Notes: a model not told the origin generated them from the letters alone. Positions 6,222 to 12,005 are shown, counted from the stretch's first letter. The stretch is 64,000 nucleotides of DNA from an uncultured delta proteobacterium (GCA_963827685.1 CAWHBU010000002.1:128001-192000), one strand, 5' to 3'. Program-made: numbers and translations.

Positions 6222-7661
6222 TTAACTCTCTTCTTCCGAGATCAGCACATCTTTTTTGATGTGATACCTCTCCATCTTGCTGCGCAGCGTACTCCGGTTG
6301 ATTCCAAGAAGCAGGGCGGCCTGGACCTGATTCCCCTTGGTTCTTTGAAGGGCGCGGAGGATCAAACCTCTTTCCAAGCTGGAAATCATGTCCATATCCT
6401 GTGAGGTCGTCGGGGCATTTGAGAACTCTTCGAAGAGGGCGTCGAGGAGATCCTCAACATTTTTTTTCTTCAATTCCTCCTCAGCTTCTCGCTTCTCCAA
6501 GCCTTTTTCAAAAAGGAGTTGGTCTTCAAGAATCCATTCTCCTTGGCAGAGCACCATCGCCCTTTTCAGGACATTCTCCAATTGTCGAACGTTCCCAGGC
6601 CATCCATAGGAAGTAATTTTTTCCATGGCCGAAGGAGTTATTCCAACAATCCCCCTCTTCAATTCCGTGTTAAACTTTTTTAGGAAGTAGGAAACCAGTT
6701 CAGGGATATCCTCTTTCCTCTCCCTGAGGGGTGGAATTGTAATAGAGACCACATTGAGTCGGTAATAGAGGTCTTCCCTAAACTTTCCATTTGAAATGGC
6801 TTCCTCTAATTCTTTATTCGTTGCGACGATGAGCCGGATGTCCACCTTGATCGTCTCCATTCCACCCAGCCTTTCAAAGCTTTTCTCTTGGAGGACTCTC
6901 AATAATTTGGCTTGAGTGGAGAGGGACATATCACCGATCTCATCCAGAAAGATCGTCCCACCTTGACACTGTTCCAGTTTTCCAATGCGGCGAGAAGCAG
7001 CTCCGGTAAAAGATCCTTTCTCATGACCGAAGAGTTCGCTCTCAAGAAGGGTATCGGGAATGGCCGCACAATTGACCGGAAGAAAAGGTTGACTCGAACG
7101 GAGGCTATGATGATAGATCGCCCGGGCAACCAGTTCTTTGCCTGTCCCACTTTCACCTCTGAGGAGCACCGTAATATCGCTCGGGGCGACCTGGCCAATC
7201 ATTTTATAGATCTCCTGCATCTTGAGAGAAGATCCGACGATCCGTTCCTCCTCTCCCTCTGTATCAGCCAGAGGAGCATAGACGACTTCCTCTTTCATCA
7301 GTTTTCGCAATGTGAGGGCCTTTTCAACCAGCGCTTTCATCTGCGGAATAGGAAAAGGTTTTAGGATATAGTCGAAAGCCCCGTACTTCATGGCTTCGAT
7401 AGCGGTCTCGGTGGTCCCATAGGCCGTCATGATGATGACCAGAGATTTAGGATCGATCGATTTAATCTCCTTCAGTACATCAATTCCGTTTCGACCCGGC
7501 ATCTTAATATCCATGATGATGAGGTCAGGAGAGCTTTCTTTCACCCGATCCAATGCTTCTTCCCCATTCTGGGCGGTGAGGATGGAATATTTTCCCTCCA
7601 TCATCCGTTTCAGAGAGTATCGGATCGATTTGTCATCATCGACGATCAGGATGGTTTGCAT
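6222..7661 (-). CDS. Sigma-54-dependent response regulator (NtrC/AtoC-like: REC, AAA+, Fis-type HTH)
   Basis: ILIVDDD, MDIKMPG, GESGTGKE, ESELFGHEKGSFTGA, FLDEIGD, WPGNVRQL, GNQVQAALLLGINRSTL. Confidence 0.95.
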   Translation of the reverse strand: MQTILIVDDDKSIRYSLKRMMEGKYSILTAQNGEEALDRVKESSPDLIIMDIKMPGRNGIDVLKEIKSIDPKSLVIIMTAYGTTETAIEAMKYGAFDYILKPFPIPQMKALVEKALTLRKLMKEEVVYAPLADTEGEEERIVGSSLKMQEIYKMIGQVAPSDITVLLRGESGTGKELVARAIYHHSLRSSQPFLPVNCAAIPDTLLESELFGHEKGSFTGAASRRIGKLEQCQGGTIFLDEIGDMSLSTQAKLLRVLQEKSFERLGGMETIKVDIRLIVATNKELEEAISNGKFREDLYYRLNVVSITIPPLRERKEDIPELVSYFLKKFNTELKRGIVGITPSAMEKITSYGWPGNVRQLENVLKRAMVLCQGEWILEDQLLFEKGLEKREAEEELKKKNVEDLLDALFEEFSNAPTTSQDMDMISSLERGLILRALQRTKGNQVQAALLLGINRSTLRSKMERYHIKKDVLISEEES

Positions 7662-7671
7662 CTTCTTCCTC

Positions 7672-9390
7672 TCATGAAATAGGGAGCCAAACCGTAAAGA
7701 GAGTTCCCTTCCCTGAGGCGCTTTCCACCTCAATTTTTCCATGGTGTTGATCAATGATTCGATGGGCGATGGAGAGGCCGAGGCCAATCCCGCCTTCCTT
7801 TGTAGAGAAGAAGGGGTCGAAGAGTTTATTCATATCTTCACTGGGAATACCGATTCCAGAGTCCTGAATGGAAAGTATTATCCAACGACTATTCTCTGAA
7901 ACCTGTCCCCTCAATGTCAAGTTGCCACCCTTTGGCATCGCTTGAACAGCATTTAATAAGAGGTTGAGAATGACCTGTTTCATCTGTTCACGGTCCACCA
8001 GAATAGGGGGCAAGATTTGGAATTCTTTTCGAACGTTGATTTGATGTTTCTCCATTTGAGGTCGAAGCAATTGAAGGGTCTCTTCAAAAAAGGAGAGGAC
8101 ATCCGCTTTTTCTAAAAGGGGAGGTGCCGGTTTGGCGAATCGAAGGAATTGGTCCACGATCTCATTGATCCGACGGATTTCCTCCTCGATGACTTTGAGA
8201 TCCTCACGATGGGCGCTTTCCGAAGGAAAATTCTCTGTCAAGGAATGAATGAGGATATTGATACTGGTGAGGGGATTTCGAATTTCATGAGCGATGCCTG
8301 CGGCCAATTGCCCTAAGGCAGCTAATTTCTCAGACCGAATCAATTGAGCCTCCGTCTTTCTGAGATCGGCGGTGGTCTTTTGAATCTTTTCTTCCATCTG
8401 CTGGCTGAAGGTCTTAAGTTCCTGATACATGAAGGCGTTGTAGATGGCCAAACCTGCTTGCTGCGCAAAAGCCATCACCGATTCGAGAGTCTCTTTGGTA
8501 ATGCTTTTATTGGGCTCGAGAAAGTCTGCGGCAATGGCTCCCAAAGCCTTTTCCTTCGCCAACAGGGGGACCACTAACAGAGAGTGAAGATTAAATTTTT
8601 CTCTTAAGAAGGGGTTGATCCTTGGATCTTGTCTTGCATCTGGGATGATGAAAGGTTTTCGCTCAAAAACCGATCTGGCCACAACACTGTCCTCTGGGTC
8701 TAAACGCAGCGCAATCCCTTTAATCTTGTCCTCGTCAATCCCTACAGCCATTTTGCATTCAAGAAAATTCCTCTTTTCGTTAATCAGATAGAGACGGGCG
8801 CGGTCAAACCCAATATTTTTTGTCACTCCTCCTAAAACCAGTCTGAGAATCTCTTCAACATCGAGGGTCCCCATCAAACCAGAATTATCAATACAGATAG
8901 CCGCCTGATTGGCAACCGTCGTGAGAATTTCCTCTTCGCTCTTCGAGAAGGAGTGGGGATAGGAGGTATAGCAATTGATCACGCCAATCACTCTGTCCTT
9001 AATGCACATGGGGACACTGAGCATGGAGACCAAGCCCTCCTTCTTGGCCAACTCTTTTTCTTTATAAAGAGGTTCTTTCAGAACATGAAGAATGGCCATG
9101 GGTTGATTTCGAAGGGCTACTTGGCCGACCACTCCTTCTCCTATAGCGAGACTTCGCTCCTTCAAATATTCTTCGCTGATGCTCTGGGTGGCCTTCAGCT
9201 TCAGCTTTTGATCTCTGTCATCGAAAATCCAAAGGGAACAGATCTTCGAGGCCATCAAATTGGCAGTGACCGTGACGATCAGTCGCAGGACATCTTCAAG
9301 GTAGAGACCGGAGGCAATGGCTTTGCTGATCTCCAGCAGGGCATTGATTTCTTTGGCATCGAGATTTCTTTTTCCTTTGGATAACTCCAT
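7672..9390 (-). CDS. Cytoplasmic GAF-GAF sensor histidine kinase
   Basis: Two GAF domains, coiled coil, H-box AHEIRNPL, N-box NLLLNA, DSGIGI, FDPFFSTK, GIGLGL. No TM segment. Start assigned from the GGAGAGG RBS. Confidence 0.93.
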   Translation of the reverse strand: MELSKGKRNLDAKEINALLEISKAIASGLYLEDVLRLIVTVTANLMASKICSLWIFDDRDQKLKLKATQSISEEYLKERSLAIGEGVVGQVALRNQPMAILHVLKEPLYKEKELAKKEGLVSMLSVPMCIKDRVIGVINCYTSYPHSFSKSEEEILTTVANQAAICIDNSGLMGTLDVEEILRLVLGGVTKNIGFDRARLYLINEKRNFLECKMAVGIDEDKIKGIALRLDPEDSVVARSVFERKPFIIPDARQDPRINPFLREKFNLHSLLVVPLLAKEKALGAIAADFLEPNKSITKETLESVMAFAQQAGLAIYNAFMYQELKTFSQQMEEKIQKTTADLRKTEAQLIRSEKLAALGQLAAGIAHEIRNPLTSINILIHSLTENFPSESAHREDLKVIEEEIRRINEIVDQFLRFAKPAPPLLEKADVLSFFEETLQLLRPQMEKHQINVRKEFQILPPILVDREQMKQVILNLLLNAVQAMPKGGNLTLRGQVSENSRWIILSIQDSGIGIPSEDMNKLFDPFFSTKEGGIGLGLSIAHRIIDQHHGKIEVESASGKGTLFTVWLPIS

Positions 9391-9498
9391 CTTCCTCTCC
9401 ATCATCCGCTCCCTTGAGGAACAGATAGGTGTGGGAATTTTATCTATCATAAACGAAAACCTATCTTTTGGAAAGTAAATTACCAAATCTTGGGGAAT

Positions 9499-9536
9499 AA
9501 AAAAGGGGATACCGGGTATCCCCGATATCCCCTTTT
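9499..9536 (-). terminator. Intrinsic terminator after the glutamate-synthase-family gene
   Basis: Minus strand AAAAGGGGATATCGGGGATACCCGGTATCCCCTTTTTT: a long GC stem followed by a U-tract. Confidence 0.85.
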
Positions 9537-9551
9537 GATCAACCATTCTGC

Positions 9552-11118
9552 TTAGCCAAGGATCTTATCCACTTCCTCTTGATCAGAATCCATCACATAG
9601 GGGATCCCGGAGATCTCAGCGGCCTTCCGGGTCAAGGCGCAGATGTCATTCCTCGAAATATATTTCAAGGCAAATTTTCTGGCTCCGGCCATCATCTGTT
9701 GAAGTCCTGCATTCAGACGATCAAAATAGGTGACCATTCCAATCGTCCCTGCAGGGATGCGTTCAAAGTCCTTCCCATATTTATCCTTCAGTTTAGCGGC
9801 CAAAATGAAGATGTGTTCCACATCGGTCCCAAATTTGGCTACATCCGCAGGGACTTTGCCTTTTTTGACCATCTCACCGATCGTATTTCCCACCATGGCA
9901 GCGGTCATCGAAGCTCGACCCAGGCAGATGGCTTTAATATAAGGAGCAGCCAGGGCGATGGCTTTGAAGATATGATCCTCTAGAGAACCCCCCTGCCATG
10001 GCACAAGCGGGGATGAACGCACCTTTTTGATCTAAGCGTTTCAGATATTGGTAGAGGAGACTTTCAAGGTACACCGTGGGGACTCCCCATTCGTTCATCA
10101 TCCGCCAGGGGCTCATCCCTGTTCCTCCTCCAGCACCATCCACAGTGAGAAGGTCGATCTTGGCATCCGAGGCATATTTGACGGCTCGGGCCAGATCCGC
10201 AGGCCGATAAGCTCCGGTTTTGAGTGAGACATATTTGGCTCCGATCTTTTTCAGACGCTCCACTTCCTTACGGAATCCCTCCTCATCCACCATACCCAGC
10301 CTGGAATGGCGTTCGAATTCTTTAAAATCTCCCTGTTTGAAAGCTTCCTGGATCACATGATCTTCAGGATCGGGGAGGACGATATAGCCCCGGCTCTTTA
10401 ATTGCAGCGCCCTCTCCAAGGTCGGGAGCTTGACTTCACCACCGATGTCTTTGGCCCCTTGTCCCCATTTCGGTTCGATAATCTGGACGCCCAACTTCTC
10501 TACGACATATTCCGGAACGCCGAGGCGTCCGTCTTCCACATTATATTGAACGACGATTCCCCCATACCCGTCATACCATTGCTGGAATGTCTTGACACGG
10601 CGTTCCATCTCTGGAGATCTGACCACGTGGCTATTCTTAAATTCAGACTTGGGATCCATACCACAGACATTTTCCCCTACGACAACCAGGGTTCCGGAGA
10701 TGGCTGCTGCAATCGCCATCGCTTCCCAATGAATCCGCGCGATATCGGTTGAACCTAAAGCGCCTGTAAAGTATGGGACCTTCAATTTAATCTTTTCTCT
10801 CGACCCAACTTCTGTTGACACGTCTACAGCCGGAAAGGTCGCACGGTCTGAATCGGCCGAGATACCGACCGCGCCCACACAAGTCCCCTGAATATTAAAA
10901 TGGGAATAATCGATGGGATAATCTTTCTCAGATCCTGCGGTCACCTTGGAAAACGGCTGGGGGTAGAGAATTTCCCTTCCTCTTAAGGCGGAACGACCCA
11001 CTTCACAAGGGCCTGGACACCCGTCCAGACAGGTCACACAAATCCCTGATATGGGAGCGGGTTCTACCCGATTTCGAGTAAAGGTCGCCGGACTACGATT
11101 TGGTTTGGTGAATGTCAT
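9552..11118 (-). pseudogene. Stand-alone FMN-binding glutamate synthase family protein (GltB2-like), frameshifted near 9981-9993
   Basis: N-terminal CxxCxxxCxxxC, KWGQGAKDIGGE, LKTGAYR, DGAGGGTGMSPWRMM. The frame changes between MAGGFS and LEDHIFKA. Could be a sequencing error rather than a real lesion. Confidence 0.8.
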
Positions 11119-11146: not shown

Positions 11147-11245
11147 AAAAAAAAGACGTCAAATCTCTTTGACGCCTTTGTCGTGTGAGATAAAATGGGC
11201 ACCGAACTTCTTCGACGCCCTTGTCTTCAATACATCTTCGTATTG
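11147..11245 (-). promoter_or_regulatory. ANTAR-binding RNA leader: hexaloop hairpins overlapping intrinsic terminators
   Basis: GAC-AAGGGC-GTC (11214-11225) and GAC-AAAGGC-GTC (11171-11182) have loops with A1/G4. CAATAC-GAAGAT-GTATTG lies at 11228-11245. Terminator AAAGGCGTCAAA-GAGA-TTTGACGTC-T8. The ANTAR gene is adjacent. Confidence 0.88.
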
Positions 11246-11300
11246 ATCGTTAACTATTTAATATAATAAAATATTTTTGTCAAGAATATTCTGAAATTGG

Positions 11301-12005
11301 TCATCCCCCCATTTTTTCTGTGAGGAGGATAGCTTCAGCGATCTCTCGCATGGTCTTTCGACTGTCCATGCTCGCCTTTCGAATCCTTTTAAAGGCCTCT
11401 TCTTCGCTCAAGTCATGGTGTTTCATCAAGGCTCCCTTGGCCCTTTCCACCAATTTTCGGGTCTCCAATTCCTCCTGGATCACCTTAGTCTTTACCATTA
11501 ATTCGGTATTCTCAATGCAGATGGCCGCCTGGTTGGCCACGGCTGTGAGGACAACTCTTTCTGTCTCATTAAATTCGTGGGGATAAGAGGTATAGCAATT
11601 GATCACCCCGATGACCTTATCTTTCAACGTCAAGGGGACACTGAGCATGGAGACCAAGCCCTCTTTTCTTGCCAATTCTTTCTCTTTGTAACGGGGTTCC
11701 TTCAAGACATTGAGGATGGCCAATGGTTTGTTTTCCTGTGCCACATAACCCACGACGCCCTCTCCTAATTTTAAAGTCCGTTCCTTGAGGTATTCCTCAC
11801 TCATGGTTTGAGTCGCCCTGATTCTGAGAACTTTCTCTTTTTCATCCAGTATCCAGAGAGAACAGATCGTTGAATCCATTACATTGGCTGTTACGGTTAC
11901 AATCAGCTTTAAGATGTCATCCAAATACCGGTCCGAAGAGATGGCTTGGCTGATTTCTGAAAGGGCTTGAATCTGTTTCTTGTAGGATGTCTTTCTATAG
12001 AGCAA
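11301..12005 (-). CDS. GAF-ANTAR RNA-binding antiterminator
   Basis: GAF domain followed by ANTAR motif LETRKLVERAKGALM...SEEEAFKRIRKASMDSRKTMREIAEAI. TTG start after AAGGAGG. Confidence 0.95.
   Translation of the reverse strand: MLYRKTSYKKQIQALSEISQAISSDRYLDDILKLIVTVTANVMDSTICSLWILDEKEKVLRIRATQTMSEEYLKERTLKLGEGVVGYVAQENKPLAILNVLKEPRYKEKELARKEGLVSMLSVPLTLKDKVIGVINCYTSYPHEFNETERVVLTAVANQAAICIENTELMVKTKVIQEELETRKLVERAKGALMKHHDLSEEEAFKRIRKASMDSRKTMREIAEAILLTEKMGG

Follow-up and report, generated by a model that had tools for sequence, protein, structure and literature searches.

What does an ANTAR-type leader do with two terminator hairpins and only three hexaloop hairpins, one short of the two pairs that would give each terminator a complete site of its own? 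The question is raised by a 137-nt stretch in the window (the whole 64,000-nucleotide stretch of DNA from an uncultured delta proteobacterium that was analysed here), which appears to serve a glutamate-synthase-family gene as promoter and leader and to act as a protein-dependent transcription attenuator. A sequence-only reading had placed a TTGACA box, three hexaloop hairpins (H0, H1, and H2) and two terminators (T1 and T2) on the minus strand and had taken the arrangement for a design in which the middle hairpin is shared by both terminators. Its elements, coordinates, and distances agree base for base with the minus strand, including linkers of 2 nt between H0 and H1 and of 31 nt between H1 and H2 (Table 1).

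Anatomy of the leader

The leader is preceded by a sigma-70-like promoter, from which transcription would start near position 11248. TTGACA is the same in all five aligned leaders, each of which also keeps 17 nt between it and a TAnnnA box; a consensus scan missed this promoter because its -10 box lacks a T at position 6. The 5' arm of T1 is overlapped by H1 and that of T2 by H2, and the proposed mutual exclusion of H1 with T1 and of H2 with T2 is borne out by these overlaps. The final three base pairs of T2 draw on the start of the U8 run (11154-11147).

Table 1. Positions of the leader elements, the adjoining genes, and the further ANTAR units of the genome
Feature	Position	Strand	Sequence or description
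-35 box	11283-11278	-	TTGACA
Spacer, -35 to -10	11277-11261	-	17 nt
-10 box	11260-11255	-	TAAATA
Sigma-70-like promoter	11255..11283	-	TTGACA, 17-nt spacer, TAAATA
H0, P1 recruitment hairpin	11245-11228	-	6-bp stem; CAAUAC (11245-11240), loop GAAGAU, GUAUUG (11233-11228)
Linker, H0-H1	11227-11226	-	AA, 2 nt
H1, P2 of unit 1	11225-11214	-	3-bp stem; GAC (11225-11223), loop AAGGGC, GUC (11216-11214)
T1 hairpin	11220-11197	-	10-bp stem, loop GAAG, then AUUUUAUCUC
T1 weak tail	11196-11190	-	AUUUUAU = AUUUUAUC; T1 with tail, 11190..11220
H2, P2' of unit 2	11182-11171	-	3-bp stem; GAC (11182-11180), loop AAAGGC, GUC (11173-11171); no P1' of its own
T2 hairpin	11179-11152	-	12-bp stem; T2 with U-run, 11147..11179
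Ribosome-binding site	11130-11125	-	AGGAGG
Start codon of regulated gene	11118-11116	-	ATG
Regulated gene, glutamate-synthase-family (FMN-domain-like)	9552..11118	-	Pfam Glu_synthase, 6.2e-14
GAF-ANTAR regulator gene	11301..12005	-	234 aa as listed, presumed TTG start; Pfam ANTAR 4e-22, GAF_2 7.6e-21
Single ANTAR unit outside window	G000:C2:1173955-1173993	+	glutamine synthetase
Single ANTAR unit outside window	G000:C2:1166292-1166325	+	glutamine synthetase
Single ANTAR unit outside window	G000:C9:45014-45052	-	asd
Single ANTAR unit outside window	G000:C3:1111192-1111232	+	small unknown membrane-like ORF

H0 and H1 as the dual hexaloop of the family

A dual-hexaloop ANTAR site has been defined as two hairpins with stems of at least 3 bp, six-nucleotide loops carrying A in the first and G in the fourth position, and a short linker between them, the second hairpin (P2) overlapping the 5' arm of an intrinsic terminator; such sites have been found at glutamate synthase genes (PMC3369931). 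The leader has stems of 6 bp (H0) and 3 bp (H1), a P2-terminator overlap at H1/T1 and at H2/T2, and an ANTAR gene in the same genome. The loops of H1 and H2 both have A1 and G4, while that of H0 has G4 but a G at position 1. The 2-nt linker between H0 and H1 is outside the 5 to 12 nt that are natural in eut leaders, where linkers of 3 or 14 nt impair function (PMC3369931). The sequence-only reading had listed both the G in the H0 loop and the short linker as caveats.

Leaders were collected behind 30 ANTAR orthologues and in front of the genes orthologous to the regulated one. A recurring element of the family consists of CAAUAC-N6-GUAUUG, two bases, GAC-N6-GUC, and a terminator with a 5' arm that starts in the second loop. 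We aligned 38 dual hairpins, selected with a pattern that constrained part of the stem sequence and left the loops free; both loops have G at position 4 in all 38 rows. Position 1 of the P1 loop is A in 29 rows and G in 9, and that of the P2 loop is A in 27 and G in 11; the P1-P2 spacing of the window is shared by 35 of the 38 rows. Within this clade, both caveats lose their force: a G at loop position 1 is normal in P1, and the 2-nt linker is the family norm.

We built a covariance model of the family P1-P2 dual hairpin (R1), with the window row in its seed. H0 and H1 together scored 57.4 bits, the best match in the 5.2-Mb genome, while H2 scored 18.5 bits over 28 nt, a match to the P2 half alone. 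Judged from these alignments, H0 is a genuine P1, and H0 with H1 is the canonical dual hexaloop of this bacterial family. An initial rule-based annotation of P1 hairpins and terminators was too crude, giving spurious P1 and missing 3-bp P1' hairpins, and was superseded by R1 and by a second model (R2, below).

A search of the window against Rfam gave no match at the gathering score, chance-level matches at E values up to 10, and no match to an ANTAR-target family. Outside the family, in other Thermodesulfobacteriota, inspection by eye of leaders of the same gene revealed P1 stems of different sequence around an AC-hexaloop-GU top, such as GCCGUAC-GAAGGU-GUGCGGC and UUCUGAAC-AAUGGC-GUUCGGAA. 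R1 gave only 6 weak matches at 77 more distant loci, because the model is too family-specific.

T2 as a strong and T1 as a doubtful terminator

The 115-nt leader is predicted to fold into H0, T1, and T2 at -39 kcal/mol (z = -5.89), and none of 200 shuffled sequences folded as well. In context, the predicted energies (in kcal/mol) are -5.2 for H0, -2.1 for H1, -2.2 for H2, -14.3 for T1, and -14.5 for T2. The OFF state (H0, T1, and T2) totals -34.0 kcal/mol versus -9.5 for the ON state (H0, H1, and H2), so that the ON state needs a protein to hold it. A consensus scan found both T1 and T2 to be terminator-like; the region total of 5 compares with 3.0 ± 1.6 in shuffles and is, as a count alone, not significant.

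The quality of the U-tracts was assessed with a tail score covering 15 nt past the last G/C pair, with a formula modelled on the d'Aubenton-Carafa/TransTermHP scheme. The comparison set comprised 51 family hairpins with a dG of -8 or below, three weak first-unit remnants being left out. T1 scored 3.31 in the window, 2.59 in G009, and 2.71 in G012, and the first terminator of G021 scored 3.64; the remaining 47 hairpins fell between 5.18 and 6.32. The T1 U-tract, listed as weak in the sequence-only reading, is degraded in the window and in its two closest relatives, G009 and G012; the T1 of G007 has a U7 run. T2, by comparison, has a tail score of 6.14, combines its 12-bp stem with the U8 run as an intrinsic terminator does, and scored 56.3 bits with R2. 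The degraded tail of T1 makes T2 the main gate and leaves T1 doubtful as a terminator. The proposal of two terminators in series stands as far as the two hairpins and the strength of T2 are concerned; its other half, T1 as a working terminator, is doubtful.

Covariation among orthologous leaders, which had been suggested as a check, gave a divided answer. In the five closest leaders, 97.9% of the cells of the T1 stem are paired and 2 of 10 pairs are altered on both sides; substitutions including C-G to U-A and G-U to A-U have left the stem intact. The signal in these five leaders is too weak to be significant: the OFF-state score was reached by 51 of 500 shuffles, the ON-state score by 91 of 500. 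The terminator helix compared over 29 units did covary strongly: 6 of its 12 pairs are altered on both sides and none of 500 shuffles scored as high, while the 99.4% of cells that are paired is an inflated figure, the 29 rows having been picked for a 12-bp hairpin. In G009, the third pair of H1 shows a double compensatory change (GAC/GUC to GAU/AUC) with the 5' change outside T1; this single event speaks for selection on H1 itself, as far as can be judged from the alignment.

A tandem duplication that lost P1'

At least two R1 matches were found in 29 of the 30 orthologous leaders, the exception being G004 with a single match. Eleven leaders contain two complete P1-P2-terminator units, both of at least 30 bits, and one of these (G070) contains three; seven of the second units in the 11 leaders were in the R1 seed alignment and four were not. 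These 11 relatives thus provide each terminator with its own complete dual hairpin, which the window does not. P1' is absent from the window, G009, G012, G007, and G022, in which the second R1 match covers 21 to 28 nt and scores 18.0 to 24.4 bits. Other variants, identified partly by eye, include a P1-P2 without a terminator, followed by a spacer hairpin and P2'/T2 (G017); the P1 of a decayed first unit followed by a complete second unit (G023, G076, and G035); and, in three genomes of genus g5, a complete unit with a terminator-less dual hairpin behind it.

Two places in which a missing hairpin might hide in the window were considered and rejected. The 14-nt spacer between T1 and H2, AUUUUAUCUCACAC, contains no G that could serve as G4 of a loop, and R1 aligns to 28 nt only, leaving no cryptic P1'. 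The loop of T1 is GAAG, which is not a hexaloop.

Read against the orthologues, the three-hairpin layout is a tandem duplication (P1-P2/T1 followed by P1'-P2'/T2) minus P1'. The earlier view of a purpose-built design gives way to this one: the orthologous leaders show tandem duplication as the family norm, from which P1' was lost. The gene tree (supports of 82 to 91; G009, with 51 aa in the locus, omitted, and G066 without a leader) does not resolve the number of P1' losses.

Three ANTAR units in series in one leader were seen in two genomes, at L138 (G070) and L153 (G019:C34, 100-360, minus strand). The terminator-less dual hairpin of genus g5 (L133, L134, and L136) lies about 55 nt before the start codon and reads UAC-AACGGG-GUA followed by GAC-AAGGAG-GUC or GAC-AAGGGG-GUC. 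Its second loop resembles a Shine-Dalgarno sequence, and the element could be a translational ANTAR site.

Proposed dependence of H2 on the upstream unit

We ran R1 and R2, a covariance model of P2 with its terminator, on 55 family genomes and paired the matches by hand. R2 gave 62 matches of at least 39.5 bits. A P1, taken as an R1 match of at least 30 bits in register, accompanies 32 of the 33 first-or-only units, and the lone exception (G065) has a P1 with a mutated 3' half. Among the 29 downstream units, such a P1 was found in 14, and was weak or lacking in 15. The comparison of 15/29 with 1/33 carries no P value, since the genomes are kin and not independent, and its 30-bit cut pools divergent real P1' (for example that of G011, 26.7 bits) with absent ones. 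Immediately upstream of each of the 15 P1-poor downstream units is an R1 match of at least 27.7 bits; the terminators of these units are among the strongest (50 to 64 bits), and the genes behind them are open. A relaxed scan of the window's own genome for a 3-bp hexaloop hairpin with a terminator, which was noisy (56 of 2,615 candidates passed), revealed no convincing stand-alone unit lacking P1 beyond the known ANTAR sites; the one candidate examined closely, C3:180183, lies inside a coding region.

This pattern of P1 loss matches what would be expected if protein recruited upstream serves the second terminator. Across these genomes, a unit seems able to do without P1 only when a complete one closely precedes it, and the idea that the upstream hairpins serve the second terminator receives indirect support. 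This idea is in keeping with the general sense of the successive-binding model, where P1 recruits the protein and the dimer moves to P2 (PMC8934654). The 31-nt gap between H1 and H2, however, is well outside the natural 5- to 12-nt range of eut leaders and conflicts with the finding that 14-nt or +20-nt linkers abolish EutV antitermination (PMC3369931, PMC8934654).

The same data bear on other readings of the leader. H2/T2 could be an autonomous single-hexaloop attenuator, to which a dimer binds from solution while H0 and H1 govern T1 only, in which case the two gates would multiply. In isolation, a P1 and a P2 hexaloop are bound by EutV with comparable affinity, and the redefined minimal motif consists of one hexaloop (PMC8934654), as this reading would have it; yet antitermination by EutV in vivo requires both hairpins (PMC3369931), and the near-universal P1 of first-or-only units, the confinement of P1-poor units almost entirely to places behind a complete unit, and the outcome of the relaxed scan all argue against autonomy, which we hold to be rather unlikely. 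The exact model of the sequence-only reading, in which H0 and H1 relieve T1 and H1 then pairs with H2 to relieve T2, draws on the same pattern of P1 loss as the dependence on the upstream unit does. The compensatory change that kept H1 in G009 despite the very poor T1 tail of that genome, and the terminator-less P2 that G017 keeps 34 nt upstream of P2'/T2, also speak for a shared H1. Nothing favors H1 over H0 as the partner of H2, however, the 31-nt linker exceeds what EutV tolerates, and once RNA polymerase is past T1, the T1 hairpin should displace the much weaker H1 unless protein stays bound; we consider this model improbable.

A relay within the RNA would dispense with binding at H2: ANTAR protein on H0 and H1 would free the 3' arm of T1, which would then pair with GGCGUC of the T2 5' arm as an antiterminator. 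Since the units are repeats, the 3' arm of T1 does match the 5' arm of T2 by base complementarity, and in G007 (-9.1) and G022 (-8.3) the intermediate is predicted to fold in this way. The intermediate of the window folds differently (-5.2), the pairing is interrupted in G012, and once the 3' arm of T2 is present, T2 wins in all six leaders, so that a relay is barely credible. That the second unit or the whole leader is a decaying, unregulated remnant, with T2 a constitutive terminator or the gene dead, could be suspected from the frameshift that splits the gene in the window (see below), the loss of P1', and the degraded T1 tail. Against this, the same layout is present in four other genomes, and in the three whose loci cover enough of the gene the frame is open (535 to 567 aa in G012 and G007, 543 aa in G022); the stem of H0 and the 12-mer of H2 are identical in all five close leaders, while the spacer before H2 varies; and the frameshift may be an assembly error. 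Decay is thus a highly improbable account.

Regulator, regulated gene, and regulon

The presence of a GAF-ANTAR gene, encoding the putative cognate regulator, was upheld. The stop codon of this gene (11303-11301) is 55 nt before H0, the distance given in the sequence-only reading, and a search for the ANTAR domain (PF03861) gave one match, of 81 bits, in the 5.2-Mb, 94.5%-complete genome: the gene adjoining the leader. Among NCBIfam models, the GAF domain of the regulator is nearest to the GAF domains of PtsP and NifA, with scores far below the whole-protein cutoffs.

The glutamate-synthase-family gene is split in the window into overlapping frames of 394 and 156 aa, which match residues 1 to 383 and 377 to 522 of the orthologue, a single 522-aa protein in G012. 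The frame breaks near residue 378, in the region of 9975-9995. A G6 run and a short TC repeat adjoin the break, which may reflect either faulty assembly or a true frameshift; in the latter case, the window copy may be under relaxed selection. A similar split, at residue 187, was noted in the G011 orthologue. The start MTFTKPNRSP is common to the window gene and its orthologues, and the nearest named relatives of the gene are in metagenome-assembled genomes labelled Thermodesulfobacteriota, Deltaproteobacteria, or Syntrophaceae.

The next genes downstream of the regulated gene encode a GAF histidine kinase (7672-9546, minus strand), a sigma-54 response regulator (6222-7787), and a NAD synthetase of the glutamine-dependent type. 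One GAF domain of this kinase, three genes downstream, shares 68% identity with that of the GAF-ANTAR protein. The kinase is paired with the sigma-54 response regulator, and the pairing recurs in many relatives. One signal may feed both the RNA switch and the sigma-54 activator.

Elsewhere in the same genome, R1 detected further single units with terminators before two glutamine synthetase genes, before asd, where the unit sits in a long leader, and before one unknown gene (Table 1). These single units are likely to constitute, together with the leader studied here, the regulon of the one GAF-ANTAR protein, to judge by their genes a regulon of nitrogen assimilation. In relatives, glutamate dehydrogenase (gdh) leaders come with a TTGACA promoter of their own and contain one or two ANTAR units (L129, 3557-3650; L138, 3343-3440; L139, 3333-3430; and L005); tandem units are therefore not limited to one gene. 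In the gdh leader of L014 (G001), a run of N directly follows the dual hairpin, over the position of the terminator.

A model for the three-hairpin leader

We put the probability at about 80% that, as a whole, the following explanation holds: the leader is an ANTAR-type attenuator read by the GAF-ANTAR protein, it is derived from a tandem, and H2 is served from the upstream unit. In its ancestry, a tandem duplication would have been followed by loss of P1' from the second unit and, in this lineage, by decay of the U-tract of the first terminator. H0 and H1 would form the dual hexaloop that recruits an ANTAR dimer and thereby block the T1 hairpin, itself a weak terminator at best. H2, with its 3-bp stem, would have to be held by protein so that the strong T2 cannot form, and it most likely relies on protein recruited at the upstream unit, which could be handed over or be present at high local concentration. 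When no active regulator is available, H0, T1, and T2 would form and transcription would end at the U8 run, near 11147. The signal is probably nitrogen status, presumably sensed by the GAF domain. Binding, hand-over, ligand, and direction of regulation are all deduced here from the arrangement of the locus. A narrower version, in which the ANTAR protein is passed along the chain of hexaloops, so that H0 (with H1) serves two terminators over about 30 nt and T1 is now a nonterminating hairpin, is offered only as a tentative possibility.

Relation to known systems and significance

Tandem riboswitches and tandem T-box attenuators also place two sensor-terminator units in series, an arrangement that should tighten the off state and make the response steeper. 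In those systems, the RNA senses ligand or tRNA directly and each unit is complete; the leader described here differs in having a protein sensor and an incomplete second unit.

A close parallel is found in the eut leaders of Enterococcus faecalis controlled by EutV/EutW (PMC3369931, PMC8934654), which likewise contain two G4 hexaloops with conserved closing pairs and a P2 lying over the 5' arm of an intrinsic terminator. The output domain is ANTAR in both cases, and the idea that P1 recruits and P2 antiterminates fits both. The sensor differs, a GAF domain here compared to a phosphorylated receiver in EutV, as do the 2-nt P1-P2 linker (5 to 12 nt in eut), the two serial terminators, the second unit without a P1, and the G1 of the H0 loop. 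In Geobacter sulfurreducens, of a related phylum, GnfK/GnfR antitermination controls nitrogen genes (PMC2995071), as the ANTAR regulator studied here probably does. The GnfR site, CAGGCAANGGCGCC (GGC-AANGGC-GCC), has a 3-bp stem overlapping a terminator and the same AANGGC loop as H1 and H2 (PMC2995071). In contrast to the regulator studied here, GnfR is a response regulator and its targets are nif, glnK, and amtB; the available portions of that paper make no mention of tandem units or of an upstream P1 (PMC2995071).

Our literature search found no paper on tandem ANTAR units or on a unit without its own P1; the supplementary match lists of PMC3369931, outside this search, could contain tandems. 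In the available text of PMC3369931, "tandem" is used of the two hairpins or of other systems, and neither "tandem" nor "two terminators" occurs in a 2025 review (PMC12591593). ANTAR antitermination is known, including that of nitrogen genes; what sets this leader apart is that the sensor is a GAF domain, that the units stand in tandem, that P1' is missing, and that the first U-tract has decayed.

Why both hairpins are required, and how the protein gets from P1 to P2, is a matter of continuing debate (PMC8934654). The variants of this family differ exactly there: they have one, two, or three units, have kept or lost P1', and carry a T1 with or without a U-tract. They precede the same gene and answer to the same single regulator, which makes the question of hand-over testable with a few leader constructs, and of all our findings this series of variants across the family is the most useful. 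GAF-ANTAR proteins were called uncharacterised in 2012 (PMC3369931), and the present locus points to them as nitrogen regulators in Syntrophales-like bacteria. If the ANTAR protein is indeed passed along the chain of hexaloops, the series that runs from a full tandem through loss of P1' and loss of the T1 U-tract to the terminator-less P2 of G017 would document how two switches merged during evolution into a single one with three hairpins, and would offer the successive-binding model a test already laid out by nature.
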